NCBI GenBank assembly: GCA_030611885.1 | Contig: JAUWOY010000007.1 | Span: 19,750-83,749, forward strand | Length of the DNA: 64,000 bases | Reading direction: 5' to 3' | Source of the DNA: Chloroflexota bacterium | Lineage (GTDB): Bacteria > Chloroflexota > Anaerolineae > VGOG01 | Shown here: positions 8,381 through 55,038 of the stretch, piece by piece | How the letters are laid out: every line of letters starts with the position of its first letter | Position numbering within the stretch: the stretch's first letter is position 1 | Notes under the pieces: generated by a model | Told to the model about the DNA's origin: nothing | Databases searched by the model: none | Seen by the model: only the letters and a program-made list of their open reading frames with translations | Program-made: the position numbers and the translations under genes

Positions 8381-8402
8381 TTGAAGCTCCTATATTTGAC
8401 AG

Positions 8403-8515
8403 CCATCGCGGTAGGACTACCAGCTATCCAACGGCCCCCCGCACAGATCCCGACGTGCAGTTTCACGCACGGTTCTGAATTGGCGGTGGGGCGCGACCGC
8501 TCCGCCGACCGTAAT
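8403..8515 (-). repeat. E115 element copy B
   Basis: Core TTTCACGCACGGTTCTGAATTGGCGG. Hairpin GGCGG/CCGCC. Confidence 0.85.
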
Positions 8516-8546
8516 TGGGCGGCGGCTGATTCCTCGCAACCAACTA

Positions 8547-9155
8547 TCAGTTCCAGAGACTGTATGTGATAAAAAGCAACAAGATGCCCACAATGGCAAG
8601 AAATACATCCAGTACCTGGATTAGTGTAATCGTCTTCTCCATTGAAGACCAACTGCGAATCTTCGGGAGAGGATCAAGTAGGAGATGTTTCAACTCTTCG
8701 ATGTCAGGATACGGGTAAAATACGCATCCCGGGTTATTCCTAGAGAACTCCCTCCACTCATGTTCTAAATTCGCGATATTGATTCTGTCGAGGCCGACAA
8801 CCTTTTCAATGACTGCAATGGGTATCCACCGGAGATTCAAGTATCGCCGCCCAGCTTGCGTCAGTACCTTCCAATAGCCAGAGAGGACCAACGAGAAAAG
8901 GCCGGTTAAGAAAGCCAATACGCCTAGGATGCACAGGCCGATATGAAACTCATGAGAGTTGATTATGAGAGGCTCAATATCAGCAAGCGGCTTTGCTACA
9001 GCCCCAACAATTGCGATTAGGGCTGCATGGACGGCTAAGAAAAGGGTCATCCTGCTTTGGCCTAGATCGTCCTCGTGGCTATACTGCTTCCATGCCTCAA
9101 TGTACATTATTTTGAGCCATTCCTCATCCTTGTATAAATCTCCAAGTTTACTCAC
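8547..9155 (-). CDS. three-TM membrane protein, unknown function
   Basis: 202-aa ORF with a GTG start after AAAGGAG. Three hydrophobic helices and a charged N-terminal helix. Confidence 0.6.
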   Translation of the reverse strand: MSKLGDLYKDEEWLKIMYIEAWKQYSHEDDLGQSRMTLFLAVHAALIAIVGAVAKPLADIEPLIINSHEFHIGLCILGVLAFLTGLFSLVLSGYWKVLTQAGRRYLNLRWIPIAVIEKVVGLDRINIANLEHEWREFSRNNPGCVFYPYPDIEELKHLLLDPLPKIRSWSSMEKTITLIQVLDVFLAIVGILLLFITYSLWN

Positions 9156-9200
9156 CGCTCAATCTCCTTTCTTGAACAAATACTCTCGACGTAGGCACCA

Positions 9201-9315
9201 CCATCGCGGTAGGACTGCCGGTTACTCAGCAGCCCCCCGCACACGTCCCAGCGCGCGGTTTCACACACGGTTCTGAATTGACGGTGGGGCGGGTGCCTGC
9301 CCCACCAACTATAAC
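9201..9315 (-). repeat. E115 element copy C
   Basis: Core TTTCACACACGGTTCTGAATTGACGG. Hairpin GGTGGGGC/GCCCCACC. The element end GTTATAG contains the last codons and the stop of the upstream gene. Confidence 0.85.
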
Positions 9316-33882: not shown

Positions 33883-35259
33883 ATGCGATTCTGTCGCCTT
33901 GTAACAACTCTGTTAGTAACGTTATTGATCCTTGTGCCCTTGGGAGCCTCGGCTGCTCCGCCCGCCCAAGGGGGCAACCTGTTGAAGAACGCTGGCTTCG
34001 AGGAAGGCTTCAGCGAGCGAGGCGCGGGTGAGGTAACCATAGCCAACGGGTGGGAAGCATGGTGGATTCAGGGCTCCGAAGACCAGACCAGCAACGGCTA
34101 CCTCAAGCGGCCCGAATACAAGTCAGAGGACGCTTGGGTCTTCACCATGCGGCGTGTTCATTCAGGTCGCTTCTCCCAAAAGTACTTTAACACCTACTCC
34201 ACTCACATCGCGGGCATCTATCAACAGGTGGCCGTTGCCAGGGGCAGCAAGGTCACTTTCTCCATTTGGGCACAGGTCTGGAGCAGTACCGACGTTGACG
34301 CAGACAAATGCGATGGCTTTGGCAACTACGCGGTTTCGGCGGGCATTGATCCTCACGGCGGCAACGATGGGAACTCCGGCAATATCGTCTGGACAGATTT
34401 AGTGATGTCGTGCAATGAGTGGGTTCACCTCAGTGTTTCCACCGTAGCCCAGACCGATAGAGTCACCGTCTTCACCAGAGGCGCACCAGATTTCCGAGTG
34501 CGTTTCAACGATTCCTACTGGGATGAAGCTGTCTTGACCGCCGTCGCCCCCACTCCCACACCACGGCCGCCAACGAGCACCCCAAAGCCAACCAACACGC
34601 CAGTGCCAACCGACACTCCCCTGCCGACCAACACACCCCGTCCAACGGCGACCTATACCCCTATCCCTACCTCTACCCCAACCCCGACGCTAGCGGATAC
34701 CCCCACGCCGACCATAACCCCGACCCCAACGGACACCCCCACGCCAACCCGGACGCCAACTCCCACCGCAACTCCGACGCCAGTCAGCGGGGCTATCTGC
34801 GTGCTGGCGTATCACGACCGCAACGGCAACGAGATGCGCGACCCGGACGAGGAGCTCCTGCCTGGGGCGATGTTCACGGCCTCCGATGGCCGGCAGACGG
34901 TAGCCAGTTACATCACCGACGGCATCAATGAACCCTACTGTTTCACGGATTTGAGGCCAGGCAACTACTTCATCTACGAGGAAAACCCACCCGACTACAA
35001 TTCTACCACCCGCGATGATTGGGGGGTGGTCATCGCTGGCGGCTCTATCATCCAGATCGAATTCGGCGACAACCTGCAGCCCACCCCCGTACCGACGTCC
35101 ACACCGGCGCCCACGTTTACGCCCGTTCCCATCTCAACTCCCACCCCAGAGCCTCTAATCTCCAGGCTGAGTGCGAATCTGTATCAGGTGAGCGGCGTCG
35201 TAATAATCGTCCTCGCGGCGGCGATAGCGCTGGTGTTTAATATCTTGAGGAGGAGATAG
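33883..35259 (+). CDS. secreted/anchored protein: CBM4/9-like module, PT-rich linker, SdrD-B-like fold, C-terminal TM
   Basis: Signal peptide. [12 protein letters not shown]...GWEAWW start typical of CBM_4_9. Long TPTP linker and a C-terminal hydrophobic anchor. Confidence 0.7.
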
Positions 35260-35767: not shown

Positions 35768-38700
35768 ATGCTCTCAAACATTGCAGAGATGAAAAAGAAG
35801 GTCACAGGATTGCTCCTGGCCCTATCCCTGAGCCTCATCGCCTGCCTGCCTCTGCTGATGGGTGGTGGCCCCATAAACACGCGCGGGGGAGGCGATAGCC
35901 CCTTCCTGCTGGTGCGCCTCCACCAACTGGTTTCCAACTTGAGTGCTGGCGTCTTCCCCGCCCGCTGGATGCCCGACGCCGCCTATGGCCTGGGCTACCC
36001 CTTCTTCAACTTCTACGCTTCTCTGCCCTACTACATCGCCGCCTTGTTCAAGTTCTGGGGCTTCGGCTTCATCTGGGCCATCAAGCTGACCCAGTTGTTG
36101 GGTTTCGTCGCTGCCGCAGCCTCGATGTATCTTTTGGCCAAACGCCTGTTTCACCGAGAAGCCAGTGTCATACTGGCCGCCCTGGCTTACACCTACGCTC
36201 CCTACCACCTGGTCAACGTCTACGTGCGGGGCGACGCCCTATCGGAGTTCTACGCCTTCATCTTCTACCCTCTCATCCTCTGGGCACTGCTGCGCCTGCG
36301 GGACTCGCTTTTGAACGACCAGTTTTTGCCACGAATTACACGAATTTCACCAATTTATTCTTCGGTTGGCAACATCACCCTGGTCGCCCTCGCTTACGGC
36401 GGACTGATCCTGACCCACAACGTCTCAGCCCTAATCTTCACCGCTTTCATTGGTCTATGGCTCATAGCTTGTAGCTTATCGTCCACGAGCAACAGGAGAA
36501 CTGCGGGCTCTTTGGGATTTCGCAGGGTCACAGTATCGGAGTCCCCAACTCGTTGGGGGTGCGGCGCGGCAAACCCCAACAAGTTGGGGACTCCAGCCCG
36601 CTACTCATGCCAATTCTCAAAGACCCGAACTGCGATAAGCTATATGCTATATGCCATCAGCGGCCTGGGCCTGGGCCTGGCCATAAGCGCCTGGTTCTGG
36701 CTGCCGGCCCTGCTGGAGGGGAAGTACGCGCAATTGGAGCATCAGACCACCGGCTACTTGAATTACAGCAATCACTTTCGCGGCCTGGATCTGGTGCAAC
36801 CCTCGCTTCTCTTCGACTACGCCATCGAGGCGGGGCAGACGCCCTTTGCCATGGGACTAGCCCAGGCCGTGCTCGCCCTCCTGGGCACGATAGTGATCGT
36901 CGGCTGGTGGATCAAACGCCGCCGCCCTGAGGCCCAGAGCGCGTTCCTCATCGCTGGCCTGGCCCTGGCTACTTTTCTCATCACCCCGCTCTCGCGCCCT
37001 CTGTGGGACAACGTGCCGCTGCTACCCTTTGTCCAGTTTCCCTGGCGCTTTCTGTCGGTGCAAGCCTTTTTCGCCAGCCTGGTCATCGGCTACCTGGGGA
37101 CATGTCGGGGTGTTGGAGTCCCCAACTTGTTGGGGGTACGGGGCAATAAACCCGAACAAGGTTTCGACAGGCTCAACCCGACGGTTCGGGACTCCAACGC
37201 ACTAACTTGCTGGCTGGCCTGCGTCGCGGGAACGGTGCTGCTAGTGACTGCCATGCTGGGCCTCAAGCCTGAGTACCTGCCCATCGGCGAGGCGGACATC
37301 ACCGTGGAGCGCCTGATGCTCTACGAATACTTCACCGCCAACGTCGGCACCACCATCCGCCACGAGTACCTGCCCTGCTGGGTGGTGCCCCGCCCCTACA
37401 CCTCCGAGGTGTTGCTGCGCAGCGGTGAGAAACCGCCGCCGCTGGCGATGGGCGGAGAGGTTAAAACGGCTGAACTGCTTTGGCGCAAGCCAGCAGCCGA
37501 GGGATGGGTCCTGGACGTGACCTCACCTCAAGCGTCTTTGGCCTTCCACACCTACTACTTCCCCGGCTGGCGGGCCTACGTGGACGGCCAAGCCAGGGAG
37601 GTGCGGCCCGTCGAGAATCTGGGCTACATCGGCCTCGATCTCGACCAGGGAGAGCACCAGGTCGTCCTGCGCCTGGAGCGCACGCCCCTGCGGGCTTTGG
37701 CTGAGGGGCTATCGCTAGTTGCTGTTGTGGCTGTCATCGGATTCCTAGCTGCAAGCTCGAAGCTCAAAGCTCAAAGCTCAAAGCTCAAATTCCTCGCCAT
37801 GACAATTCTGCTGATAGGCGTTAACGGATTGCGGACTTCGGACCAACATATAGCTGACCACCCGACCACCCGACCACCTGACCAAGGACCATCAGACCAA
37901 ACCATGGACTTTGACCGCCTGCCTTATCTGCACCACAATTCCCAAGGGGTGAACTTTGGCGGGGTGGCACGGCTGGAGAGTTACCAGCTTTCGGCGGACG
38001 AGGTGGAAGCTGGGGAAACCGTAGAGGTGGTTCTCCACTGGGATGAGGTCAAGAGCGAGGGCCTGGAAGCCAGCGTGCGCCTGACTTCTCCTGCTGAGTA
38101 CCTCTTCCACACCAGCGCTGACCTGGCCGAGGATAGTGTCAAGATCGTCCAGTTTTCTCGAGAGCGCCGGCTGAGTAGGCTCATAGCACAGCGGAGAGCT
38201 GTATCGAAGCCAAGCGGGTCTTCTGGGCAAACCCGCTCGCTTGGTTTCGATACGCCTGCGGCTACTCAACCGGCGTTCGCTTTGCTCTCAGGCCGAGAAC
38301 TGAATAGCCTTGAGGATAGCGCCCTCTTGCGGGCTGGGACGACGCGCCACCGTTTGAAAGTCCCCGCGGAAGCCGTTCGCGGCCTCTACCTGATCAGCGT
38401 AAGGTTAAGAGACGAGGAGGGCGAGATCAAGCCCATCACCGAGAGGGGCGAGACTCTGGGCACCACCTACCTGCGCCCCCTGCGCGTTCGCAGCCAACGC
38501 TGGGCCACGGGCGACGAGCCGACCCTGGCGACTTTCGGGCCGGGCATCGTCCTGAGCCAGGTGGAGACCGAACAGAAAACGCCCGAATCATTGGAGACCA
38601 GGCTGACCTGGCGAGTCGTTGAATCAGTGGCTGCCAACTACGGCCTGGCCCTGCGCCTGCGAGACTGGGATGGACAAACCCTTGCCGCGCTGGACACCCA

Positions 38701-39715
38701 ACCTCACTACGGCCTGTACCCCACCAGCATGTGGCTAGAGGGGGAGTTGGTCAGCGGCCGCTACGTCCTGCTCTTACCTGAGGGCGCCCCGCCCGGTGCA
38801 GACTATTCGCTGGAGGTCATTCTCTACGAGGTGGCCTCGCTGGCCCCCATCGGCACGGCGCAGGTATCCAATGTGACTCTGACGGAGCCAACCATCAAAG
38901 CCACCTATCCCGTGCTCCAGGAGTTTGATCAGTTGGCCCTGGTCGAATTGAGTCCGGTGACGGCGCAGATAGAGCAGGGGCAACCCTTGCTCGTGCAGGC
39001 CAAATGGGCCGCCACCGAGCACCCCACCCGCGATTACGCCTGCCGCCTATCTCTGAGAGATAAAAGTGGGACGACCATCCAGTCGCAGACCGCACCGATA
39101 GCCAGGAGCTACGCCACCTCCTTCTGGCCGGCCAACGCCATCGTGGCCAGCCGCTATCAGATGATGCTCGATCCCCTGCTGCCTCCGGGGCGCTACGATC
39201 TAGTCATAGCTGTGGACGACGCTCAGACGGACGAAGGCTGCGGGGAATTCGTTCTCCCGCTGGGCATTGAGATCAAGGGGAGAGAGCGCAGCTACGATAT
39301 ACCCGCCATGCAGGCTAGGCTGGACGTGAGCTTCGGCAGCCAGATGCGCCTTCTGGGCTATGATCTAAGTCGTGAGGAGGGGGAGCTGCGGCTGGGGCTG
39401 CACTGGCAAGCGCTGCAGCAAATGGAGGAAGATTACAGAGTCTTCGTCCACCTTTTCGATCCTGCTACAGAGGTGATCGTGGCCCAGGACGACGCCATGC
39501 CTCGTCAGAACCAGTATCCCACTTCCTGGTGGGCTGAGGGCGAGGTAGTCAGCGATGTGGTCATCATCTCCCTGAAGGACGTGCCCCCAGGCCGCTATCG
39601 CCTGGCCCTGGGCGTCTACAATCCGCGAACGATGGATCGCCTGGCGGCCGTCGGCCCTGAAGGCATCCCTGTCGCCGACAACCGAGTCATCTTGGATGAG
39701 GAGGTGCAAAATTGA
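35768..39715 (+). CDS. PTPS-related / YfhO-like polytopic membrane protein with large extracytoplasmic C-terminal region
   Basis: GGGDSPFLLVRLHQL...ARWMPDAAYGLGYPFFNFYASLPYY matches my recollection of the PF10131-type membrane domain. 1315 aa, open through at least five repeat insertions. Confidence 0.75.
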   Translation: MLSNIAEMKKKVTGLLLALSLSLIACLPLLMGGGPINTRGGGDSPFLLVRLHQLVSNLSAGVFPARWMPDAAYGLGYPFFNFYASLPYYIAALFKFWGFGFIWAIKLTQLLGFVAAAASMYLLAKRLFHREASVILAALAYTYAPYHLVNVYVRGDALSEFYAFIFYPLILWALLRLRDSLLNDQFLPRITRISPIYSSVGNITLVALAYGGLILTHNVSALIFTAFIGLWLIACSLSSTSNRRTAGSLGFRRVTVSESPTRWGCGAANPNKLGTPARYSCQFSKTRTAISYMLYAISGLGLGLAISAWFWLPALLEGKYAQLEHQTTGYLNYSNHFRGLDLVQPSLLFDYAIEAGQTPFAMGLAQAVLALLGTIVIVGWWIKRRRPEAQSAFLIAGLALATFLITPLSRPLWDNVPLLPFVQFPWRFLSVQAFFASLVIGYLGTCRGVGVPNLLGVRGNKPEQGFDRLNPTVRDSNALTCWLACVAGTVLLVTAMLGLKPEYLPIGEADITVERLMLYEYFTANVGTTIRHEYLPCWVVPRPYTSEVLLRSGEKPPPLAMGGEVKTAELLWRKPAAEGWVLDVTSPQASLAFHTYYFPGWRAYVDGQAREVRPVENLGYIGLDLDQGEHQVVLRLERTPLRALAEGLSLVAVVAVIGFLAASSKLKAQSSKLKFLAMTILLIGVNGLRTSDQHIADHPTTRPPDQGPSDQTMDFDRLPYLHHNSQGVNFGGVARLESYQLSADEVEAGETVEVVLHWDEVKSEGLEASVRLTSPAEYLFHTSADLAEDSVKIVQFSRERRLSRLIAQRRAVSKPSGSSGQTRSLGFDTPAATQPAFALLSGRELNSLEDSALLRAGTTRHRLKVPAEAVRGLYLISVRLRDEEGEIKPITERGETLGTTYLRPLRVRSQRWATGDEPTLATFGPGIVLSQVETEQKTPESLETRLTWRVVESVAANYGLALRLRDWDGQTLAALDTQPHYGLYPTSMWLEGELVSGRYVLLLPEGAPPGADYSLEVILYEVASLAPIGTAQVSNVTLTEPTIKATYPVLQEFDQLALVELSPVTAQIEQGQPLLVQAKWAATEHPTRDYACRLSLRDKSGTTIQSQTAPIARSYATSFWPANAIVASRYQMMLDPLLPPGRYDLVIAVDDAQTDEGCGEFVLPLGIEIKGRERSYDIPAMQARLDVSFGSQMRLLGYDLSREEGELRLGLHWQALQQMEEDYRVFVHLFDPATEVIVAQDDAMPRQNQYPTSWWAEGEVVSDVVIISLKDVPPGRYRLALGVYNPRTMDRLAAVGPEGIPVADNRVILDEEVQN
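36538..36594. repeat. intragenic palindromic element (family P3), 57 nt
   Basis: GGAGTCCCCAACTCGTTGGGGGTGCGGCGCGGCAAACCCCAACAAGTTGGGGACTCC. Length is 19 codons. Confidence 0.88.
37115..37195. repeat. intragenic palindromic element (family P3/P2 hybrid), 81 nt
   Basis: GGAGTCCCCAACTTGTTGGGGG...GTTTCGACAGGCTCAACCCGACGGTTCGGGACTCC. Length is 27 codons. Confidence 0.85.
37747..37788. repeat. heptanucleotide tract (AGCTCAA x6) inside the membrane protein gene
   Basis: agctgca agctcga agctcaa x4; 42 nt, encodes SSKLKAQSSKLKF. A second CGACCAC-type tract follows at about 37854-37905. Confidence 0.9.
38165..38275. repeat. intragenic palindromic element (family P2), 111 nt
   Basis: CGCCGGCTGAGTAGGC...AAGCGGGTcttctgggcaAACCCGCT...GGTTTCGATACGCCTGCGGCTACTCAACCGGCG. 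Length is 37 codons, translated as ...SLGFDTPAATQPAF. Confidence 0.88.
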
Positions 39716-42700
39716 GACCCCTGCGATTCCTGATCATATTGGCGATGATAACGGCAGTGTTAGCGATAGTTCCTACTCTTTCGTCTGCGGTCGAACCGGG
39801 AGACGTGTTGATAAATGAAGTGGCGTTCAAAGAATCGAACGATTGGATCGAATTCTATGTGCTGCAAACTGCCAACTACGAGGACTTCAGGATCTACGAA
39901 GGAACCAAGTTGGTAAAAGAGTTTCCCAAGATCACGGCTTCAGCCGGCGACTACATCGTCTTGCACTTCAACGATTCGACGAGCGATGAGAGTGATGCTA
40001 CTGGTGGCAAAGGCGCAAATGGCTATTGGGATATCTACACTGACGACCCAAGGCTAACGGGGACGGATAATGTAGTGAGAATCCAGAGGGCGGGAACCGA
40101 ATCCGTCCACGATACCATTGATGCCGTCATCTGGTCAAACAACAATGGTAATTTTACAGCCAACAAAAAGGTGGCCAACGACCTTGTTGCCGCCGGGCAT
40201 TGGAATACAGAAGCAGACTTTTCGAGCACTCGCGACAGCGATGCCTGGACGGACAGCGGCGACGTCAAGGCAGGCAAGTCAATAGGCCGGGATGCATCTT
40301 CCACTGACATTAACAGCAAGGCCGACTGGCATCTGTTCACCAGTCAAACTCCAGGCGCGGCCAATCCGACTATGGGTACCCCTGGGGATGTGCTGATCAA
40401 TGAGGCGGCGCCCAATGAGGACGAGGATTGTATCGAGTTCGTCAACGCCTCGGAGGAGAGCATCAACATCCAGTACTGGCTGGTGAGGAAACGGAGCACA
40501 GAAGTGAAAGTCTTCCCCGCCTATACGATAGCTCCGGACGAGTACATCGTCCTGCACTTCGATGGCGATCCAGCCGATGACGAGACCACGGTGGATACCA
40601 ACAGCAACGGTTATCGCGATTTCTATGCCGCTTACATCGGTTTAACATCCACGGATGACGTGATCATCCTGGAGGATGGGGCGAATACCATGATTGATAC
40701 TCTGGTCTTCGCCAATAACGACGGGACGTGGGCGAATCCCCAACAAAATGCATTTAACAGCATAGTGGACGCAGGTTATTGGGAGGGCACGCCTGACGGT
40801 GGGGCAACAATAAACGAGGCCGAAAGCGCCGATTGGAGCGAGGGAGGTGAAGGCAAGTCCCTGGGCAGAGACAGTTCCTCCACCGACACCAATGCCAAAG
40901 CCGACTGGCATGTGTTCACCAGTCACACCCCTGGAGAAGCCAATCCTGTCCTGGGCAACCCCGGCGATGTCCTGATCAATGAAGTGGCGCCCAGCGATGC
41001 CGAGGACTGGATCGAGTTCCGCAATATGTCAGGCGAGGGCCTAAACATCCAGTACTGGCTCGTGAGGGAACGAAGCACGGTGGTGAAGACTTTTCCAGCT
41101 TACATTGCAGATCCTGGGGAGTATTTTGTCCTCAACTTCGACGGCGATCCAGCCGACGACGAAATCGCAGGGGATTCCAACGGCAACGGCTATCGTGACT
41201 TCTACACTGCCGACAGCGGCCTCACGGGCACGGACAATGTGATCATCCTGGAGGATGGGGCCAGCACCATGATTGACGCCCTGGCGTATGCCAACAATAA
41301 TGGGACGTGGGCGGGCGCGCAGCAGACGGCCTTTAACAACGTAGTCGAAGCCGGCCACTGGGAAGGCACAGTGGATGGGGGAGCAACGGTAAACGAGCCT
41401 GAGTGCGCTGATTGGAGCAATGGGGCCAAAGGTAAGTCTTTGGGTAGAGGTGCGAGGTCTAAAGATGCGGGCCGTAAGAACGACTGGTATCTGGCACTCT
41501 CAACCAAAGGCAAGGTCAATCCAGGCTGGCCCCACTCCGTGACCGTGACGGCGGAGCCCGCCAGCATCCCTGCGGGCGGCATCTCCGTCTCTACCATCAG
41601 CGCTGAAGTCACGGATGTTAGCAACAAGCCCGTGGCCGATGGGACGACGGTCGTTTTTGCTACCGACCTGGGCACTCTGAGCAATATCACTGCCGAGATC
41701 GTTGATGGAATAGCCGCGGTGATGCTGAGGGCCGGCACTGTACCGGGAAAAGCCACGGTGACGGCCACGTCCCTCAGAAGAGTCTCCGGCCAGGTCAGTG
41801 TCCAGTTCACTTTCATACCCACCCAAATCGGTGCCCGCATCCCGTTGCCCGCTGTTGATAACGAGCGCGGCTGGGAGACCCTGATCCAGGTGCAGAACGC
41901 GGGTGATGAAAGCACCGGGGCGATCGTGTTCTTCTGGGGGGAGTACTCAGGCCAGTGCCCGGACAACGATCCAGGCCCGGCAGGAGTTGCTTGTATGATG
42001 ATCCCTAAGAACGCTGTCTGCACCCTGAGGTCTCAGATCCCCGACCTGGCAAGGTCAGCGATAGTCTACTCGGTGAATAAGGACCGCTTTGACAGGGCCT
42101 GTAAAAAAGCTGCTCGTGCTGTGGACAATAGCAGCAAGTGGAAGAAATGGGAGGATGATTATGAGGACACTGGCCAGCCGGTGGCGGTGATAGTCCAGCG
42201 CCACGGGCCTAACGACTATGACACCGTGGTTTCGAGTGCCTACGCTGGCATCGCCGAAGACATGGAAGGGAGCGAGCCTCCCTATCAATATTTTGCGCCC
42301 TACGCCATGAGGCGGTATTACAACCTGGATACAGAGGTGATTATCCAAAACTCCGGCCAGAGGTGCACCTCGGTGTGGCTCCACTATCAAAAGCAAGGAG
42401 GGGGTTGCAGCTTCAGCCATGCGGAGCACATCGAGCAGTTGGCGCCAGGGGAATCCGTGCGGAAAAGGGTGCCGGAGGCGCTGGGTGTCGGCTGGCTGGG
42501 TTCGGTCTACGTCACGGCCAACGAGCCTCTGGCCATCATCGTGGATCAGGCCAGCTTCCCGCCGTCGGTGGATCGGGGCGTGCTGCTGACCTACGAAGCC
42601 CGGCCCTACAAGCTCACCACGGACACGCTCTTCTATGCCGACCTGGTCTTCCGCGAGCTGAGCGGCTGGGAAGCCAGCATCCAGGTGCAGAACCTGACCC

Positions 42701-43392
42701 AGGAATCCCTGCCCGCTTTCGTGACCGTCGAATTCTTCGACCAGAGCGGCGATTCTATCCTTTTCCTGGGCGACTGGGTATGTCCTGCTGGAGGGGCTAC
42801 TTTCTACCTGCCGGCCATCGCCGGCCTGGGGGTCGAATACGCTGGGGCAGCGGTGATCCAATCGCACCGCCAGGTGGGCTATCCCAGCGGTGAGGAGACC
42901 GACGGCCAGCCCATCTTCGCGGTGGTTGATCTCAAGAAAGCACTCCAGGATCGGGAGGACGCCCAGGGAGGCAGCTACAATGCTCACGCCGAGAGCGAGA
43001 ACATGGGAGCCAGCGCTATCATGCTTCCCTTTTTGGCCAGGGATCATCAAGGCGTGACCTCTCTGATCGCCGTCCGCAACAGTTCCAACTGCAACGACGT
43101 AAAGCTCAAGCTAGAGATCAGAGACGAGACGGGGGCCGTCGTTAGCTTGGTGGGCCACTTCTGGCTGCGCGCTGGGCACGTCAAGCTCATAGACCTGGCC
43201 AACGTGGGCAGCATTGTGCCTGGCTTCGTTGGCGCGGGGATAGCAGAGGTCACCGACGTGCAACAACTGTGCGACACGGACGGCGATGGAGATGTGGATC
43301 AGTCACCAACCATGCCTTCTGTGGTGGTGGTGAACGAGGGTGCTGGCCCTGGTGACGTCACCTCGGTATACGAGGGCATTCCCATGAGGTAG
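39712..43392 (+). CDS. secreted giant protein: 3 x lamin-tail-domain repeats, Big-like Ig domain, C-terminal four-module domain
   Basis: TTG start overlapping the upstream stop; signal peptide. Three PGDVLINE[VA]AP...DWIEF LTD signatures and a Big_1-like segment (VTVTAEPASIPAGG...). C-terminal ~520 aa is paralogous to 47706..53210 and 53443..55038. Confidence 0.85.
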   Translation: MRPLRFLIILAMITAVLAIVPTLSSAVEPGDVLINEVAFKESNDWIEFYVLQTANYEDFRIYEGTKLVKEFPKITASAGDYIVLHFNDSTSDESDATGGKGANGYWDIYTDDPRLTGTDNVVRIQRAGTESVHDTIDAVIWSNNNGNFTANKKVANDLVAAGHWNTEADFSSTRDSDAWTDSGDVKAGKSIGRDASSTDINSKADWHLFTSQTPGAANPTMGTPGDVLINEAAPNEDEDCIEFVNASEESINIQYWLVRKRSTEVKVFPAYTIAPDEYIVLHFDGDPADDETTVDTNSNGYRDFYAAYIGLTSTDDVIILEDGANTMIDTLVFANNDGTWANPQQNAFNSIVDAGYWEGTPDGGATINEAESADWSEGGEGKSLGRDSSSTDTNAKADWHVFTSHTPGEANPVLGNPGDVLINEVAPSDAEDWIEFRNMSGEGLNIQYWLVRERSTVVKTFPAYIADPGEYFVLNFDGDPADDEIAGDSNGNGYRDFYTADSGLTGTDNVIILEDGASTMIDALAYANNNGTWAGAQQTAFNNVVEAGHWEGTVDGGATVNEPECADWSNGAKGKSLGRGARSKDAGRKNDWYLALSTKGKVNPGWPHSVTVTAEPASIPAGGISVSTISAEVTDVSNKPVADGTTVVFATDLGTLSNITAEIVDGIAAVMLRAGTVPGKATVTATSLRRVSGQVSVQFTFIPTQIGARIPLPAVDNERGWETLIQVQNAGDESTGAIVFFWGEYSGQCPDNDPGPAGVACMMIPKNAVCTLRSQIPDLARSAIVYSVNKDRFDRACKKAARAVDNSSKWKKWEDDYEDTGQPVAVIVQRHGPNDYDTVVSSAYAGIAEDMEGSEPPYQYFAPYAMRRYYNLDTEVIIQNSGQRCTSVWLHYQKQGGGCSFSHAEHIEQLAPGESVRKRVPEALGVGWLGSVYVTANEPLAIIVDQASFPPSVDRGVLLTYEARPYKLTTDTLFYADLVFRELSGWEASIQVQNLTQESLPAFVTVEFFDQSGDSILFLGDWVCPAGGATFYLPAIAGLGVEYAGAAVIQSHRQVGYPSGEETDGQPIFAVVDLKKALQDREDAQGGSYNAHAESENMGASAIMLPFLARDHQGVTSLIAVRNSSNCNDVKLKLEIRDETGAVVSLVGHFWLRAGHVKLIDLANVGSIVPGFVGAGIAEVTDVQQLCDTDGDGDVDQSPTMPSVVVVNEGAGPGDVTSVYEGIPMR

Positions 43393-45849: not shown

Positions 45850-47658
45850 ATGGACAGGAAAATGAAACATAAACGCAACTACAACAAGGCCCGGTTGGGC
45901 CACACTTGCGCCAAAGGATTGTATCTGTTTCTTCTCGCTGCGCTGATGGCCGGGTTGGTGCTGAGCGGGGGGCCGGGGTCGGTGCCAGTAGCCTATGCGG
46001 CCGGCTTTCTGGTCAACAACTACGGCGACGATGTTGACTGTAACCCGGGCGACGGCATATGCGAGACTGTGCCATTTAATGGCCAATGCACGCTGCGGGC
46101 GGCCATTATGGAGGCTAACGTCTGGCCCGGTTCCGACGCCATCGATCTCCCGCCCGGCACCTACCTTCTGACCCGTGCCGGTGCTGGCGAGGATCAAGCC
46201 GATACCGGCGATCTGGACATCACCGACGGTCTGACCATCACCGGCGCGGGCGCAGCTGCCACAATTGTTGACGGTGTCACCCTCGACCGGGTTTTTGACA
46301 TCTTGCTTGGTGCTACCTTGAATATCTCCGGTGTGACGATCCAGAACGGGGATACTACAGGGGATATCACCGTAGTGGGGGGCGGTATCAAGGGCATCGG
46401 CGGCGGCATCAGAAATCAAGGTGCGCTGACTCTGACTAACGTCAACGTTCAAAACAACACGGCCACCTTCGATGCCGGTGGTGGCATTGCCAATCAAGGC
46501 ACTCTTGTGGTGATTGGCGGCACCATGAGCGGCAACTCGGCGCGTGACGCTGGCGGCGGTATCTTCAATCTCGGCACGGCAACGTTGAACAATGTCACCG
46601 TCAGTGACAACACTGTGGAACGCCGGGGCGGCGGCATCGCCACCCTCGGCTCACTGACGCTGACTGGCAGCACCGTCAGCGGCAACACCGCCAATCGGCA
46701 AGGTGGCGGCATCTTCAGCGAGGGCATACTGGTGATCAACACCAGTACCATAAACGACAACACTATCAATGTGCCAGGTTCCTTCGGTGGCGGCATCTAT
46801 AACGTCGGTCTGTTGACCATGGACCAGAGCACCATCCGCGATAACACAGCCCGCAAGGGCGGCGGCGGGCTCCTCCATTCCAGCACTGCTAACGCCACGC
46901 TGACCGACAGCACCATCAGCGGCAACATCGTCTCCCTGCAAGGCATGGGCGGCGGTGGCATCTACAACCGCGGGCCTATGTCGCTCACCAACGTCACCAT
47001 CAGTGGTAATGAAGCCTCCGCCGGGTACGGAGCGGCCATCCGCAACAATGCCGGCTCCAACCTGGAGGTAACCTTCACCACTATCTATACCAATACTGGT
47101 ATTAACAGCATCCACAACCTGGGTACTGCCACATTCAAGAACACGATCGTTGCGGGGGGCACCGGCGTAAGTGAGAAGGTCGTCGTCACCTCCGAGGGCT
47201 ACAACCTGGAAAGCGCCAATAGCTGTGGCTTCACGAAGCCGGGCGACCTGATCAACATTACCGATCCGCGCCTTGGCTCGCTGGCTGATAACGGAGGTCC
47301 TACCCTGACCCACGGCTTGTACTCCGACAGCCCGGCCCTTGACCAGATTCCGGCGGGGACCAACGGTTGTGGCACCACAGTAACCAATGACCAGCGCGGT
47401 GTGGTCCGCCCCAAAAATCTATTGTGTGACATCGGAGCCTTTGAAGATCCCATAACTGCCGTCCTGGAGACGGGATGTTATGATTTCGATGGAGATGGGG
47501 AGGTAGGCGTCGCCGACATCATGCTGGTAGCCAGCCGCTGGAACAGCTCGGTGGGCGATGACAACTACGAGCCTCACTTTGACGTGGACGAGGACGGGCG
47601 CATCACCGTAGTGGATATCATGCAGGTGGCTGCTCAGTGGGGCCAGCTCTGCCCCTGA
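45850..47658 (+). CDS. CSLREA-domain right-handed beta-helix protein with choice-of-anchor-Q-like region and C-terminal dockerin-like repeats
   Basis: CTLRAAIMEAN motif; repeated GGGI.N.G.L.. PMP-like turns; DNGGPTLTH...DQRG...CDIGAFE. Two D.DGDG/D.DEDG calcium-loop repeats at the C-terminus. Confidence 0.82.
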   Translation: MDRKMKHKRNYNKARLGHTCAKGLYLFLLAALMAGLVLSGGPGSVPVAYAAGFLVNNYGDDVDCNPGDGICETVPFNGQCTLRAAIMEANVWPGSDAIDLPPGTYLLTRAGAGEDQADTGDLDITDGLTITGAGAAATIVDGVTLDRVFDILLGATLNISGVTIQNGDTTGDITVVGGGIKGIGGGIRNQGALTLTNVNVQNNTATFDAGGGIANQGTLVVIGGTMSGNSARDAGGGIFNLGTATLNNVTVSDNTVERRGGGIATLGSLTLTGSTVSGNTANRQGGGIFSEGILVINTSTINDNTINVPGSFGGGIYNVGLLTMDQSTIRDNTARKGGGGLLHSSTANATLTDSTISGNIVSLQGMGGGGIYNRGPMSLTNVTISGNEASAGYGAAIRNNAGSNLEVTFTTIYTNTGINSIHNLGTATFKNTIVAGGTGVSEKVVVTSEGYNLESANSCGFTKPGDLINITDPRLGSLADNGGPTLTHGLYSDSPALDQIPAGTNGCGTTVTNDQRGVVRPKNLLCDIGAFEDPITAVLETGCYDFDGDGEVGVADIMLVASRWNSSVGDDNYEPHFDVDEDGRITVVDIMQVAAQWGQLCP

Positions 47659-47705: not shown

Positions 47706-50700
47706 ATGAACATTCATATCAATAGCGATCATGGAGGCCTAAGCTCTCATCTGGTACGTCGCGTGCTACCCGCTGACCGAGCCCGACCCAGATTCGTGAT
47801 CTTAATCGCGGTGCTCGCCGCCCTGCTCATCGTGGCGCTGGTCATCGGGTCGTTGGTGGTTTTTGCCGCCGGCGATCTGGTGGTGACGTTCTCATCGGCG
47901 CCATCACCGGCTCCGTTCAGAGCGGGTACCAGCCACTCGTTCCAGGTCACGGTGCACAACGGAGAACCGGACCCACCCGCCGAGGCCGTGGAGTTTCAAT
48001 ATCGGGCACCGGCCGGGGTGGTGATCACGTCCATCGTTTCTTCTGTCGGCCCCTGCGAGGTCGGCACCGAGGGCGACCCCAGTGACCCGTCCATCTGCTC
48101 CTTGGGGAACATGGGATCAACCGATGTCACCGTCGACATTACCGTGTACGTGCTCCCGGACGTCCCGCACGGCACGTTGCTAGACCACGACGTGCGGGCC
48201 TGGCAGACGTGGACTGAGGAGAACCCATTCGACAACGAGAACCACGCCTTCGTCACAGTAGAAGCCGAGGCCGACCTCTCTGTGTCAAAGATAGCCGAGG
48301 GCGACGTGGTCACCGGCTATGACGACAACACCTTCGAGGACATCCTCACGCCCACCCCAAATGTGGTGACGGCCGGCGAGTTGATCAAGTACACCGCCAC
48401 CATCACCAACGCTGGCCCGTCGGATGCCCAGAACGTGGTGGTCAGCGATACCCTGCCGGCCAAGTTCGATTTCATAGAGAGTGTGCCTGCCGGCTGTTGG
48501 GCCAACGCCGCCAACCCGCTGCTGGTTACCTGCCTGCTGGACACCATGCCGGCCACCACCACCCAGCAGTTGGAGCTGGTGGTTCGCACCCGGCCGGACG
48601 CGGCCATTGACGACCCCGATGACGGCGACAACGAGCGCACCGCGACCAACAACGTTGAGGTGTCGAGCGACACCGCTGAACCAACGTCTGACCCAACGCC
48701 GAACACATTCGCCCTACCAGTGACCGTGAACGCGCGCGCTAACCTGCAGATCACCAAGACCGACATCCCCGACCCGGTGCTGGCCGGCGAGGAAGTGAAA
48801 TACATCATCACAGCCAAGAACCTCGGCCCATCCAAGTCCCGCGCCGTCGTCATCACCGATACGCTGCCAAGTGGCCTGGTCTTCGTCCGCTGTGAGCCGG
48901 TTGATCCGGATGAAGTACCTGTGTGCAGCTACGACCAGGCTGCCAACACCGTCACCCTCACGGACTTCCGCATTGAGGGTCTGCTTCGGGACGACCTGAT
49001 GCCAGACGAGGTGCGAGCCTTCCGCATCGTGGCCTACGCCCGCAGCAACCTGGTCAAAGAGCCCGATCTCTATAATGAACCGGATGCGGTGGGCAACCTG
49101 GTGACCATCACCGACACGGTCTTCATCACGGATGTACTCGACATCACCGACTGGTACGCAGCCAACAATACCGACCGCGAGCTGACCGGTGTCACCAGCG
49201 AGGCCGATCTGGCGGTGCGCAAGACGGACACGCCCAACCCCACACCCGATGATGGCTACCTGATCTACGACCCCGTCACCAACAGCTTCATCTACACCTA
49301 CACGATCACCGTCGAGAACCTGGGGCCGTCGGACGCCGGCCGGGTGATCCTGACCGACACGCTGCCGATCTATGCCAGCCTGGACATGGTGGGCGGCGAT
49401 CCGATGACGGCCATTGATGCGCCGACCGCCCGGGACGTGCGCTTCCGCGACGATGGGGTGGTCATCGTAGACTGGGGCCAAATCGCCGGCAACGATGACC
49501 GGCGCGATGACCTGGATCTGACTAATCCCCTCAATCCGAGCCTGCCCACGACGCGCACCCTCACCATCCGCGTGCGGGTGGACGCCGACGTGGCGCCGGA
49601 CATCGGCTTCCTGGAGAACCGGGTGGAGGTGACCACTGTGCCCGGTGACGTCTGTCCGACCCAGCTCGGCACCCCAGTCTGCCCGGACCCGTGGCCCCAC
49701 GGCTACACCCCGACGCCGGATCCGGACCTGAGCAACAACGTGTACATCGAGTACACAGCGCTGGTGGCGCCGGAGGTCAAGGTGGACAAGAAGGTCTACG
49801 TCCGCAAAAGCCTGGCCAGAGACATTGACGTCACCACGGACGGCCTGACGGAGGTGGAGCGCTGTGAGACCTACGCCACCGACGACATCCTGACCTTACC
49901 GGGTGACGAGGTGACCTACTGCTACCTCATCACCAATGAGGGCGACTCCTGGCTCCACTCGATCACGCTGGAGGACCTGTCCGACCCGCTCATCTACCGC
50001 GCGCCGACCACCGACTTCACTGTTGTGGACCCGAGCCCGGCGCCAGCGCGGTGGGACCCTCCACCCTATGTGAGCGGCGCGGGCGAAGCCCAGACCATCA
50101 CCATCAAGACGACATATGCCGAGGTGGCTGTTCTGTCGCCGAAAGGCGTGCCGGATCCGGATGGCTACGACCACATCCTGATCATCCGCAGCTTCACGGT
50201 GGACTTCCCAGAGCTTGGCTCCATCGCTGGGGTTGTCTGGGAGGACAAAAACGAGAACCACGTGGTTGACTTGGGCGAGCCACTCTTGGCAGGCATGGAA
50301 GTAGATCTGTTTTACGAGTCGGGCTTCCCCCTGGCCTTGGACACCAGGACCACTGGTGCTGACGGGCGATATGCGTTTCACGGTGTGGCGCCAGGAAAGT
50401 ATAAGGTGCGGGTTCGCGATCCGGGTCCCCCATCCGTGCTTCTCGGCGTCTTACCTGTGATCGAATTCGACCCGCCGAAAGGGTACTCGATAGCCAACCT
50501 CGACGTACTCACCGGTGAGTGGTATATCGAGAGTGAGGAGTATAGCGAGCCCATATTCCGGATGTTGGGCACCAACACGGCGCGGGTGGACACGATACCG
50601 AGCACCAAGTATAGCACCCCCCTGCCGGGCATCGAGCCCTCCGGCGATTGCGTTGATCCCAATCTCGTCTGCGACACGGACCTGCTCCACGACACCCTGG

Positions 50701-53442: not shown

Positions 53443-55038
53443 CTATTCGATCACCGAGATGCCCTCGTAGATCGCCGTGATGTCGCCGGGGCCGGTGCCC
53501 TGCTGCACCACCACGGCTGAGGGCCTGACCCCAGTCAAGCCATCATTGCCCACCACCTTCACCCTGCCCGCACCGACGAAGCCGGGAATCAGGCTGCCTA
53601 TGTTGGCCAGATCAATGGTCTTCAGGTGGCGGGGCGGGAGCCAGAAGATGGGAATCCTGGTAACTACACTCCCGGTTCCATCGCTGATCTCTACCGTGAG
53701 CTTTATCCCGTTGTTATCAGAGTTATTGCGGATGGTGATCAGTGAGGTCACGCCCTGGTACTCTCTGACCAAGGAGGGGAGTGCAATGTCCGTCACCGTT
53801 TCCTGCTCGTTCTTCGCATGGGCGTTGTAGCTGCCCCCCTGCCTCGTGGCAGGATGTTTCAGGTCAACCACAGCGAAGATAGGCTCACTGCGGGAATGGA
53901 TCACGGCTGCCCCCACGTAGTTCATCCCCAGGTCAATGATAGACGGCAGGTAGAAGGTGGCAGAGCCATTGGCACAGACCCAGTCGCTGAGGGAAAAGAG
54001 GTGATCGCCGCTGTTATCCATGAATTCCACCGTGACGAAGGTGGGCTGGGAGTGTTGGGTCAGGTTCTGCACTTGGATGCCCACGTCCCAACCACTCCAC
54101 TCCCGGTAGATGAGGTCGGCATAGAAGACCGTGTCTTCAGAATCCTTATAGGGATGAGCCAGGTAGGTCAACAGCATATCCTGGCCCGTCGAGAGGGGCT
54201 CGAAGCTCGTCTGATCTACAATGATGCCCAAAGGCTGGCTGGCGGTGATGTAGGCCGAACCCAGCCAGGCGTCGTCGCCGCCCAGCTCTGGCACGCGGGG
54301 CACCCTCACTCGCACCGCCTCGCCCGGCGCCAGTTGCTGGATATGCTGGGCGTAGCTCAACTTGCAGCTCTCCTGTTCCCGATAATAGATCCAAACGGAG
54401 ACACAGTACCGGCCAGAGTTCTGGATGGTCATCTCGGTATCCAGGTCATGGTAGCCTTTCATGAGATAGGGCGCGAAGTAGCCGTAGGGAGGCCTACTCC
54501 CTTCCATCGTCTCGTCTATCCCCACGTAGGTGCTGGAGACAGTGGCGCCAAAGTCGTCGGGGCCAACTCGGTTGATGGTCACTGCCAAAGGCTGGCCGGT
54601 GCCCTCGTAGTCCTCCTTCCAGACATTCCAGTCCGCCGTGGTGGTGAGATCAGCGTCGGCGCAGGCGTCTTGGAAGTCACTGTCGTCAACCGAGTAGATG
54701 ATGGCCGAGCAGGCATCGGTCGGGATCTGGCCGCGCAGGGTCCAGACCCCATTCTCAGGGATGCTCATGCAGGCGTGACCCATAGGCCCAGGATCGTTGG
54801 AGGGACATAGGCCTGAATAGGCTCCCCAGAAGAACGCTACCGCCCCTGTCCTCTCATCCCCCACGTTCTGCACCTGGATCCGGGTGCTCCAGCCACCCTT
54901 CTTGTCAATGCGGGGGATCTGAACCCTTCTGCCAGGTTCAGCAGCCGATGCGGTGATGGCGGTCGGGAGCTGCAGCGCGCACACCAGTCCCACGACCGAT
55001 ACTAAAGCCAGGATAAAATACCGCTTTTTCATCAGCAA
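53443..55038 (-). CDS. secreted stand-alone copy of the four-module domain
   Basis: Signal peptide (MLMKKRYFILALVSVVGLVCALQLPTAITASA), then the same module order as the C-termini of the two giants (GWSTRIQVQN..., LDTEMTIQNSG..., GWDVGIQVQNLT..., GVTSLITIRNNS...). Confidence 0.8.
   Translation of the reverse strand: MLMKKRYFILALVSVVGLVCALQLPTAITASAAEPGRRVQIPRIDKKGGWSTRIQVQNVGDERTGAVAFFWGAYSGLCPSNDPGPMGHACMSIPENGVWTLRGQIPTDACSAIIYSVDDSDFQDACADADLTTTADWNVWKEDYEGTGQPLAVTINRVGPDDFGATVSSTYVGIDETMEGSRPPYGYFAPYLMKGYHDLDTEMTIQNSGRYCVSVWIYYREQESCKLSYAQHIQQLAPGEAVRVRVPRVPELGGDDAWLGSAYITASQPLGIIVDQTSFEPLSTGQDMLLTYLAHPYKDSEDTVFYADLIYREWSGWDVGIQVQNLTQHSQPTFVTVEFMDNSGDHLFSLSDWVCANGSATFYLPSIIDLGMNYVGAAVIHSRSEPIFAVVDLKHPATRQGGSYNAHAKNEQETVTDIALPSLVREYQGVTSLITIRNNSDNNGIKLTVEISDGTGSVVTRIPIFWLPPRHLKTIDLANIGSLIPGFVGAGRVKVVGNDGLTGVRPSAVVVQQGTGPGDITAIYEGISVIE

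Follow-up and report, generated by a model that had tools for sequence, protein, structure and literature searches.

A four-module beta-sandwich unit shared by three secreted Anaerolineae proteins: a candidate glycan-binding relative of the ASRT/TM1070 fold

What is the region of about 500 residues that three secreted proteins have in common in an uncultured Anaerolineae bacterium, and what might it do at the cell surface? To our knowledge, little is known about how proteins attach to the surfaces of Chloroflexota, those of uncultured Anaerolineae in particular. Because the shared module is the best-conserved part of the giant proteins that contain it, and occurs as up to ten paralogues per genome, it is a good candidate for surface attachment. 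The window analysed here is the whole stretch of 64,000 nucleotides in which the three genes lie.

Three paralogous tetrads in the window

Alignment with MAFFT of the proteins encoded at 39712..43392 (protein A), 47706..53210 (protein B) and 53443..55038 (the stand-alone protein) revealed collinear paralogues that are 57-68% identical, with protein A sharing 68% identity with protein B and 57% with the stand-alone protein, each over about 530 columns, and with 230 or more columns invariant among the three. The paralogy claimed in the earlier note is thus borne out, and all four motif blocks that it quoted are found in the translations and the alignment. Each shared unit consists of four modules (M1 to M4) and is referred to here as a tetrad.

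Protein A, on the forward strand, has an N-terminal part (39712..41829) with a signal peptide, three LTD repeats and a Big_1/Invasin_D3 domain, followed by the tetrad at 41830..43389 (aa 707-1226; M1 41830-42300, M2 42301-42633, M3 42634-43026, M4 43027-43389). The N-terminal part of protein B (47706..51587), also on the forward strand, is not homologous to that of protein A and comprises a hydrophobic segment, four DUF11/'CLIPPER' repeats, SdrD_B and other beta-rich regions; its tetrad lies at 51588..53207 (aa 1295-1834; M1 51588-52067, M2 52068-52397, M3 52398-52823, M4 52824-53207). The stand-alone protein is a secreted, 53-kDa version of the unit, encoded by a 531-aa ORF with a signal peptide at aa ~1-33 and with modules M1 at 54469-54933, M2 at 54124-54468, M3 at 53779-54123 and M4 at 53446-53778. 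Codon 3, an ATG, is the probable start of translation, since the orthologues are 529 aa long. The gene is on the minus strand, a point that had been left open. Directly upstream on the same strand lies a giant S8 subtilase (55440..60221; S8, two CarboxypepD_reg, four DUF11 and DUF7927). The tetrad is acidic, with a pI of 4.7.

Regarding attachment, no other anchor was recognisable in the three tetrad proteins, whose C-termini have neither a sorting motif nor a transmembrane helix, and SLH, CWB2, LPXTG, PEP-CTERM and similar anchoring modules gave no Pfam or NCBIfam match in the window proteins. The shared region itself matched nothing in Pfam, NCBIfam or the PDB sequences at E<=10. A coupling of protein A to the 1315-aa GT-C-like membrane protein encoded upstream, with which it has a 4-nt overlap, was considered and dropped because no homologue of the 1315-aa protein was found in any of the loci compared, including those of protein A orthologues.

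Internal repeat, predicted fold and conserved residues

Profile-profile self-comparison detected the four-fold internal repeat. Using 103-260 sequences per module (68 in a first pass) and about 100-118 columns each, hhalign gave 98.8% for M3-M4, 97.6% for M2-M3, 96.0% for M1-M3, 94.7% for M2-M4 and 94.3% for M1-M2, the weakest pair being M1-M4 (42.8%, P 2.5e-4). The AlphaFold2 model of the four modules (pLDDT 89.7, pTM 0.88) is one compact, all-beta unit in which the same eight-strand pattern is seen four times, that is, as four homologous eight-stranded beta-sandwiches, with a helical insertion (aa 119-144) in M1; module 3 modelled alone reached a pLDDT of 84.5. The repeat and the model together uphold the earlier view of four related beta-sandwich modules.

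When module 3, the module searched singly, was compared with the PDB by Foldseek, the best matches were to TM1070 of T. maritima (1nc7_A: E 2.2e-5, probability 1.0, TM 0.73/0.74, rmsd 2.8 Å, 118 columns). Chains of ASRT, the Anabaena sensory rhodopsin transducer (2ii7-2iia), gave TM 0.53-0.76, and the remaining matches that Foldseek rated probable had TM <0.5. The full four-module model also matched 1nc7 with probability 1.0. Complement, alpha-2-macroglobulin, transglutaminase and reelin structures, which the whole unit also retrieved from the PDB, were rejected as homologues, being string-of-sandwich pseudo-matches with TM <0.2; the macroglobulin (MG) chains among them (complement C3/C5, alpha-2-macroglobulin) lead the E-value list of the full model with TM 0.05-0.18 and rmsd >20 Å, and MG domains are absent from the module-level structural matches. 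Eight-stranded sandwiches can converge.

On these models, it is well supported that each module is, at the level of the fold, a sandwich of the ASRT/TM1070 (ASRAH) type. Homology to ASRAH would rest mainly on structure, because the profile-profile link to ASRT/TM1070 is below significance, with a best probability of only 32-46% and P of 2e-4 to 5e-4. Against an ASRT profile that is shallow (Neff 2.7), hhalign gave P 2e-4 and 46% probability for the pooled modules and P 4.7e-4 for M2 alone, and both alignments are in register from the asparagine of strand 2 onward. None of the window copies significantly matched PF07100 (ASRT/DUF1362) in Pfam at E<=1.

The ASRAH superfamily was defined by De Souza, Iyer and Aravind (2009; PMC2739507), who predicted sugar binding computationally and described a near-invariant Asn that ends strand 2 and stabilises the turn to strand 3, a strand-2 signature of ASRT (SHEshChhN) and a conserved Trp behind a polar residue where strand 1 begins. 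In the tetrads, an Asn is the last residue of the second strand in every module (N58 in 68/68 sequences, N207 in 67/68, N325 in 67/68 and N438 in 68/68, for M1 to M4) and is followed by a small or Gly residue; along strand 2, conserved polar positions alternate with core-facing ones, and Gln/Gln/Arg are conserved on the face that forms the putative cleft side. In M1 and M3 the invariant Trp lies where strand 2 begins, 8 residues ahead of the Asn; in TM1070 this distance is 25 residues, and the conserved Trp of ASRT is on strand 1. Strand 1 of the tetrad modules has conserved residues of other kinds: Y187 of M2 and Y306 of M3, both aromatic, and a Pro in each of M1 and M4. An enzymatic reading, whether with a metal centre or with catalytic residues, was discounted as there is no conserved His, and the recurrence of conserved polar residues at equivalent positions of the modules argues for a structural or binding role rather than an enzyme.

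Cysteines covary, with perfect or near-perfect co-occurrence of C225/C355, C442/C502, C460/C482 and C254 with a Cys of the insert, and C78, C90, C126 and C212 are conserved at 96-100%. This covariation supports the extracellular disulfides that had been suggested, and the pair C225-C355 would join M2 to M3.

Family distribution and candidate functions

Anaerolineae MAGs have 2-10 tetrad copies each, and the family comprises at least 279 clusters (50% identity) below E 1e-30, although it has no Pfam or NCBIfam model and its members are annotated as 'hypothetical'. Between paralogues with otherwise unrelated domains, the tetrads share 40-57% identity. The expectation of a secreted module that joins many partners and can also stand by itself agrees with the partner architectures of the relatives, which include S8 subtilases (6/35 relatives by Pfam), clostripain (C11), CHAP+LRR (CHAP in one relative), dockerins and adhesin-like repeats; these S8 fusions were seen by Pfam, while phmmer found no match between the S8 catalytic domain of the window and family members. 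The description as an appendage of adhesins needs correction, since among relatives the tetrad is not specifically C-terminal or adhesin-bound: it occurs at the N-terminus, followed by CarboxypepD_reg repeats, at the C-terminus, internally, as a tandem duplicate or alone. About 11% of family members have a separate C-terminal tag, [IV]YLP[LV][IV]xK, after a PT-rich linker; if the tag is what anchors these proteins, their tetrads are cargo and not anchors.

Gene neighbourhoods were not consistently glycan-related, and no general conserved operon partner was found. A subfamily of ~900 aa is preceded by an ECF sigma factor, a DUF5667 protein and a cluster of glycosyltransferases; other subfamilies are in unrelated housekeeping contexts.

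Of the roles expected in the earlier note (anchoring, self-assembly or ligand binding), binding or anchoring is supported as the likeliest. The reading that we prefer, and to which we would give an even chance, is that the tetrad is a pseudo-tetrameric, single-chain glycan-binding module that targets or tethers surface proteins. Four ASRAH-type modules would fold together into a rigid, disulfide-stapled globular unit, comparable within one chain to the homotetramers of free-standing ASRT and TM1070. The analogy with ASRAH makes a multivalent, lectin-like carbohydrate binder its most likely role, with clefts that would lie on the strand-2 face, where Gln/Gln/Arg are conserved; both the pseudo-tetramer geometry and the sugar binding are inferred from that analogy. 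Through the module, adhesin-like repeat proteins, subtilases and dockerin proteins could all be brought to a single shared glycan, for which an envelope polymer of the producing cell is the most plausible candidate; the stand-alone copy beside the S8 protease may play this part as a subunit of its own. It has been proposed that ASRT-like tetrads imitate the ASRT/TM1070 homotetramer (PMC2739507), and a high-confidence family model allows this to be tested. At 53 kDa, the stand-alone secreted tetrad is small enough for expression and ligand testing.

More tentatively, the tetrad could be a general non-covalent envelope-attachment device of the Anaerolineae lineage, in which four clefts recognise a wall glycan specific to that lineage, by way of which the filament surface would display adhesins, subtilases and dockerin scaffolds alike. 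We know of no experimentally established ligand for any ASRT-type domain, and such a device, if real, would be the first in which one could be determined directly.

It is unlikely that the tetrad is instead a head that binds outside the producing cell (to other cells, the biofilm matrix, or polysaccharides of plants or algae), comparable to a carbohydrate-binding module (CBM) or an adhesin tip, and that directs proteases and adhesins to substrates and not to the cell's own wall. The same structural evidence speaks for this head as for binding of an envelope glycan, tetrads joined to S8, C11 and CHAP hydrolases are reminiscent of enzymes that carry a CBM, a dockerin or a distinct tag that could be the anchor is present in some members, and the N-terminal hydrophobic segment may hold protein B, which would place its tetrad at the distal end. 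However, the level of identity within a genome and the near-invariance of the putative cleft residues fit one common ligand better than the diversification of an adhesin tip, and no glycoside hydrolase or polysaccharide-utilisation partner was found among 35 relatives.

That the tetrad self-assembles into a surface lattice or the sheath of a filament, with paralogues co-assembling and turning their variable parts outward, is improbable. Many paralogues per genome, stand-alone copies included, an acidic, compact and rigid unit, a parent fold that oligomerises and the existence of tandem double tetrads would all suit such an assembly, but the full model has no structural match to solved S-layer or sheath proteins, internal placement in giants and fusion to proteases are unusual for lattice subunits, and the single-chain tetrad already uses the oligomerisation interfaces within the chain.

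The S8-tetrad fusions, together with the position of the stand-alone tetrad directly downstream of the S8 giant, could point to a substrate-recruiting, inhibitory or maturation domain of fervidolysin-like/S8 subtilases that later spread elsewhere. This is very doubtful: neither a protease domain nor an adjacent protease is seen in most members, and the adjacency, although kept in 5 related MAGs, is kept among close relatives only, with S8 proteins 74-91% identical. Least probable is that the likeness to ASRT/TM1070 is convergent and the unit an array of beta-sandwiches particular to this lineage that serves only as a spacer or for structure, for, although the sequence-level links are below significance and beta-sandwiches are common among surface proteins, the very strong conservation, which includes the polar and presumably non-core strand-2 face, is unexpected for a spacer, the only high-TM structural matches are to the ASRT family, and the shared Asn, the tetrad organisation and the bridge formed by DUF5719 all agree against it.

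Comparison with known systems

The preferred reading, of a glycan-binding module, draws on what is known of ASRAH. TM1070 and ASRT are tetramers in which the dimer interface forms part of the cleft walls, and secreted ASRAH domains "always occur either as dyads or as tetrads" (PMC2739507). A sugar or small molecule is predicted to bind in a cleft lined by residues of strand 2. Experimental work has examined ASRT as a protein that binds rhodopsin and DNA (PMC8660804). The window modules share with ASRAH the eight-stranded sandwich, the Asn that closes strand 2 and the alternation of core and polar positions along that strand. They differ in that ASRT and TM1070 are homotetramers of free proteins whereas the window units have four modules per chain, in that the modules are secreted, predicted to be disulfide-bonded and larger, with the helical insert of M1, and in that the cleft His and Cys of ASRT are not conserved and Gln/Gln/Arg are present instead.

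Secreted ASRAH tetrads of Chloroflexia (Roseiflexus, Chloroflexus, Herpetosiphon) are fused to cell-wall amidases and were proposed to form a hetero-tetramer-like unit for cell-wall sugar binding (PMC2739507). Like the window units they are secreted Chloroflexi proteins with four tandem ASRAH-type modules; compared by description only, the window units are from the class Anaerolineae and have far more diverse partners, stand-alone copies and 2-10 paralogues per genome. N-acetylmuramoyl-L-alanine amidase was not found in the window proteins, in the 120 homologues listed or in 35 or more representatives.

DUF5719 (PF18986), which we take to be an actinobacterial secreted or lipoprotein family and the counterpart of the ASRAH 'dyad' family with links to WhiB and a glycosyltransferase, matched 2/35 relatives in Pfam, both divergent and both inside modules; the three window copies and the other 33 relatives gave no match. 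One relative (P0219) scored 54.7 bits, above the gathering cut-off of 26.2, and the other (P0154) 20.2 bits at aa 732-875, where profile positions 59-200 correspond to M2-M3 of its second tetrad. DUF5719 is a dyad, whereas the window arrangement is a tetrad. The earlier note had found the domain assignable to no named family, and this no longer holds given the ASRT/TM1070 fold, the strand-2 Asn, the tetrads described in 2009 (PMC2739507) and the DUF5719 matches, although the whole region has no significant match to a characterised family of known function and its link to ASRAH is structural with weak sequence support. Since the modules resemble the ASRT/TM1070 fold, already described in the form of Chloroflexi tetrads, the family seems to be a greatly expanded, unannotated branch of a superfamily already known rather than a new kind of domain. 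A family model placed alongside ASRT and DUF5719 would improve the annotation of many Chloroflexota MAGs.

The sole structural match found for the whole unit was the predicted structure of FirrV-1-C4 (UniProt Q6XLX4; 525 aa; E 1.2e-15, TM 0.50/0.50 over 555 columns) of Feldmannia irregularis virus a, a virus of a eukaryotic alga, at 9% identity and an rmsd of 8.7 Å; a scan of viral contigs gave no sequence relatives of the tetrad.

The SLH and CWB2 triplets of Firmicutes, for which binding of wall polymers has been demonstrated, are unrelated to the tetrad in fold and sequence and offer a functional analogy only. In these systems, as in the tetrad, tandem repeats build one pseudo-symmetric unit that stands at either end of unrelated surface proteins of a genome and is conserved far better than the remainder of each protein, and the tentative envelope-attachment device would be their functional counterpart in Anaerolineae.

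Tetrad-bearing proteins of the secreted-protein island

The window is chromosomal DNA from an uncultured Anaerolineae bacterium; its closest public contig is that of "Anaerolineae bacterium isolate M42_99", at 92% identity at protein level. Housekeeping genes, among them MutS, PurA and GlnS, share the left half with a glycosyltransferase cluster. Next comes an island of 29 kb that encodes large secreted proteins and in which three ORFs carry the tetrad, a unit of about 500 aa composed of four modules (M1 to M4). Protein A (39712..43392, plus strand) has a signal peptide, three LTD repeats and Big_1/Invasin_D3 ahead of the tetrad, protein B (47706..53210, plus strand) has four DUF11 repeats and SdrD_B in that position, and the stand-alone protein (53443..55038, minus strand) is an ORF of 531 aa that combines a signal peptide with the tetrad. 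The three regions are collinear paralogues, as the earlier note had proposed, with 57-68% identity and >230 invariant columns, and all of the strand motifs quoted there were found in them. The shared region matched nothing in Pfam or NCBIfam, nor in the PDB when all its sequences were searched with a profile.

Regarding other genes of the island, the 458-aa SdrD_B/SpaA-like secreted protein at 33883..35259 (plus strand) finishes with a PT-rich linker followed by a hydrophobic helix and then RRR, a type of C-terminal membrane anchor that differs from the tetrad and from the YLP tag described below; P0139, a member of the tetrad family, ends similarly. A type I dockerin is present at the C-terminus of the PMP-repeat protein 45850..47658 (plus strand). 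DUF11 is presumably one of the isopeptide-forming domains, in which case the DUF11 stalks in protein B and in the S8 protease giant (55440..60221, minus strand) are probably covalently rigidified. Newer Pfam annotation gives the DUF11 repeats of both proteins, noted together with locus L001, the label 'CLIPPER', and DUF11 and CLIPPER are treated together in a survey from 2025 on isopeptide bonds within single molecules (PMC12617251). Elsewhere in the window, G+C content falls to ~0.49-0.50 at 1-2000 and 8001-10000, compared with ~0.58-0.65 in the remainder; the latter interval, which coincides in part with small genes matching Hypoth_Ymh and 8xMP (7655..9155, minus strand), may be an acquired islet.

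Predicted fold, internal repeat and disulfides

The AlphaFold2 model of the stand-alone protein, generated from a 68-sequence alignment (mean pLDDT 89.7, pTM 0.88), is all-beta and repeats one eight-strand pattern four times over, with a helical insert in M1 (residues 119-144; numbering is that of the stand-alone protein). Because the pTM is high, the four modules are predicted to adopt one fixed arrangement rather than that of beads on a string. No global analogue of the whole tetrad model was found in the PDB (TM <= 0.18); complement, alpha-2-macroglobulin and transglutaminase, at the head of the list, are chains of sandwiches with rmsd >18 Å and were rejected, while the Thermotoga maritima protein TM1070 (1nc7) was also listed, matching one module with a probability of 1.0. 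When M3 was modelled singly (pLDDT 84.5) and the structure search repeated, the best matches were to 1nc7 (E 2e-5, TM 0.73/0.74, rmsd 2.8 Å, 118 columns). ASRT, the sensory rhodopsin transducer of Anabaena (2ii7-2iia), matched at TM 0.53-0.76, and the remaining matches rated probable by Foldseek had TM <0.5. We are fairly confident that the modules resemble TM1070 and ASRT in fold and are arranged as a compact tetrad. The sole structural analogue found for the whole unit is a predicted structure in BFVD, FirrV-1-C4 (Q6XLX4; E 1.2e-15, TM 0.50, 555 columns, 9% identity), a 525-aa protein of the phaeovirus Feldmannia irregularis virus a. A literature search on FirrV-1-C4 found nothing, and viral contigs yielded no sequence relative.

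The internal four-fold repeat, whose absence from profile-profile comparison the earlier note had named as a reason to give up its four-module description, was detected with hhalign. Profiles of 68 homologues linked M3 with M4, M2 with M3 and M1 with M3, and once each module was represented by 103-260 sequences, all pairs but one aligned at 94-99% probability over ~100-118 columns, the exception among the six being M1-M4, with P = 2.5e-4. The suggestion of extracellular disulfides gained support from cysteines that co-vary in pairs: both residues of the pair 225/355 are present in 58 sequences, only one in 3 and neither in 7, and the corresponding counts are 44, 0 and 24 for 442/502, 20, 0 and 48 for 460/482, and 22, 0 and 46 for C254 with the insert cysteine. 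In addition, C78, C90, C126 and C212 are 96-100% conserved. Co-variation in the alignment suggests that the 225-355 pair is a covalent staple joining M2 to M3.

Probable relationship to the ASRAH superfamily

The ASRAH superfamily, defined on ASRT and TM1070, has as its fold an eight-stranded sandwich with a nearly invariant Asn closing strand 2 (signature SHEshChhN) (De Souza, Iyer and Aravind, Biol Direct 2009, PMC2739507). Its members form homotetramers in which the dimer interface provides part of the ligand-cleft wall, sugar binding has been predicted for them, and tetrad versions were described in Roseiflexus, Chloroflexus and Herpetosiphon, all Chloroflexi (PMC2739507). The hallmark Asn is shared by the tetrad modules, in each of which it is the final residue of strand 2 (N58, N207, N325 and N438, in 68/68, 67/68, 67/68 and 68/68 sequences, respectively). 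Upstream of this Asn, even offsets of strand 2 are hydrophobic, consistent with facing the core, and odd offsets are conserved polar residues: position N-1 is Gln in M1-M3 but Arg in M4, and N-3 is Gln in M1 and M3. In ASRT, the cleft residues His and Cys occupy such odd offsets.

Regarding sequence similarity, a shallow family profile (Neff 2.7) was built from the recovered ASRT and TM1070 sequences. Comparison by hhalign gave P = 4.7e-4 for M2 (32% probability, 80 columns), P = 4.7e-3 for M3 and P = 2.1e-4 for a pooled-module profile (46% probability), all three alignments having one shared register from the strand-2 Asn on; at this level the sequence link is weak and not significant, though suggestive. 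Pfam DUF5719 (PF18986) matches two of 35 diverse relatives, P0219 (54.7 bits, cut-off 26.2) and P0154 (residues 732-875, which are M2-M3 of its second tetrad), and module HMMs place both matches within tetrad modules. We take DUF5719 to be the actinobacterial family called the dyad family in the 2009 ASRAH paper. The earlier note's statement that the domain could not be assigned to any named family was not upheld, given the ASRT/TM1070 fold match, the hallmark Asn and the DUF5719 matches in relatives.

Distribution, gene context and candidate function

A word-indexed search returned >300 relatives, and wherever an organism was named it was an Anaerolineae or Chloroflexi MAG. Searched exhaustively with HMMER, 1.84 billion cluster representatives gave 279 matches below 1e-30 and 1463 below 1e-3, the weaker of which may include matches to a CarboxypepD_reg tail present in the query profile. 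Species-representative genomes, scanned with a sequence pattern, contained 74 loci, in 13 Anaerolineae or Chloroflexi MAGs with 2-10 loci each and on one contig. The sole locus not labelled as Chloroflexi, L082 (QMXQ01000196.1), encodes a tetrad at 45% identity on a contig of 2.7 kb whose bin is labelled Candidatus Bathyarchaeota; given the contig size, it was most likely binned wrongly.

The earlier note's description of a domain appended to unrelated adhesin-like N-termini, or existing alone, holds for proteins A and B and the stand-alone protein but is too narrow for the relatives, in which the tetrad is found alone, C-terminal to 460-2000+ residues, N-terminal to three or four CarboxypepD_reg domains, internal, flanked by PT-rich linkers, or in tandem (P0154 has two complete tetrads and a dockerin). 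Partner domains among 35 representatives include CarboxypepD_reg (10), SdrD_B (9), DUF11 (7), S8 subtilase with a fervidolysin-type prodomain (6; in P0153 the order is prodomain, S8, SdrD_B, tetrad), dockerin (4; P0136, P0154 and P0169 are relatives of this kind) and clostripain (1). CHAP, LRR and dockerin domains occur together in another relative, and no amidase domain was seen among the 35 representatives.

On the minus strand, the 1593-aa S8/DUF11 protease gene (55440..60221) is followed, 402 bp downstream, by the stand-alone gene, and this pairing was seen again in five related MAGs, all close relatives; together with the S8-tetrad fusions, it gives a Rosetta-stone hint of a working relationship. 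A subfamily of ~900 aa (tetrad, then three CarboxypepD_reg domains; L002 7118-12715, L004 7447-12652, L003 and L005) is encoded next to and downstream of an ECF sigma factor and an anti-sigma-like DUF5667 protein of ~500-540 aa, with GT2/GT4, LPG_synthase_TM and radical-SAM/SPASM genes upstream, an arrangement kept in two MAGs. Other subfamilies have unrelated gene contexts. There is a 4-nt overlap between the TTG start of protein A and the stop of a multi-TM, GT-C-like protein of 1315 aa (35768..39715, plus strand) with weak YfhO, PTPS_related and Wzt_C matches. This overlap lacks a counterpart in the other MAGs, the GT-C-like protein having no homologue in any fetched locus, including those of protein A orthologues.

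A tag, [IV]YLP[LV][IV]xK, is found at the extreme C-terminus of 29 of 256 tetrad proteins (~11%), usually after a PT-rich linker and without a TM helix. Secreted proteins that are unrelated but come from these Anaerolineae MAGs also end in it in several cases. Among 1264 ORFs, 20 matches were seen, compared with ~0.4 expected by chance (a rough hand estimate from residue frequencies), and no NCBIfam model matched the tag. The relatives concerned are at loci L006, L007, L021, L044, L057 and L061-L078 and among proteins P0076-P0253. The tag resembles a signal for sorting or attachment that is specific to the lineage and, if it is an anchor, the tetrad in tagged tetrad proteins would be cargo. 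The S8 protease of the window has 'YRLFLPFLMH...' near its C-terminus.

In the best-supported reading, the tetrad would be a single-chain pseudo-tetramer of ASRAH-type sandwiches serving as a glycan-binding module common to many secreted proteins. Sugar binding is not known from experiment for ASRAH domains, and we put carbohydrate binding by the tetrad at about even odds; the cell's own wall as its ligand is less likely than not. As in SLH or CWB2 repeat blocks, the tetrad is strongly conserved across otherwise unrelated paralogues, indifferent to position and fused to enzymes, and no other anchor was found in proteins A and B or the stand-alone protein. These features favour one common ligand, most plausibly an envelope polymer.

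The tetrad is not a categorically new domain but of a kind already known, the ASRAH superfamily including its secreted Chloroflexi tetrads. Compared with these, what is new is a branch that escapes sequence detection by current family models, its occurrence in Anaerolineae with a marked expansion of paralogues, modules that are elaborated and predicted to be disulfide-bonded, a very wide range of partner domains as well as stand-alone forms, and a confident model of the entire tetrad.
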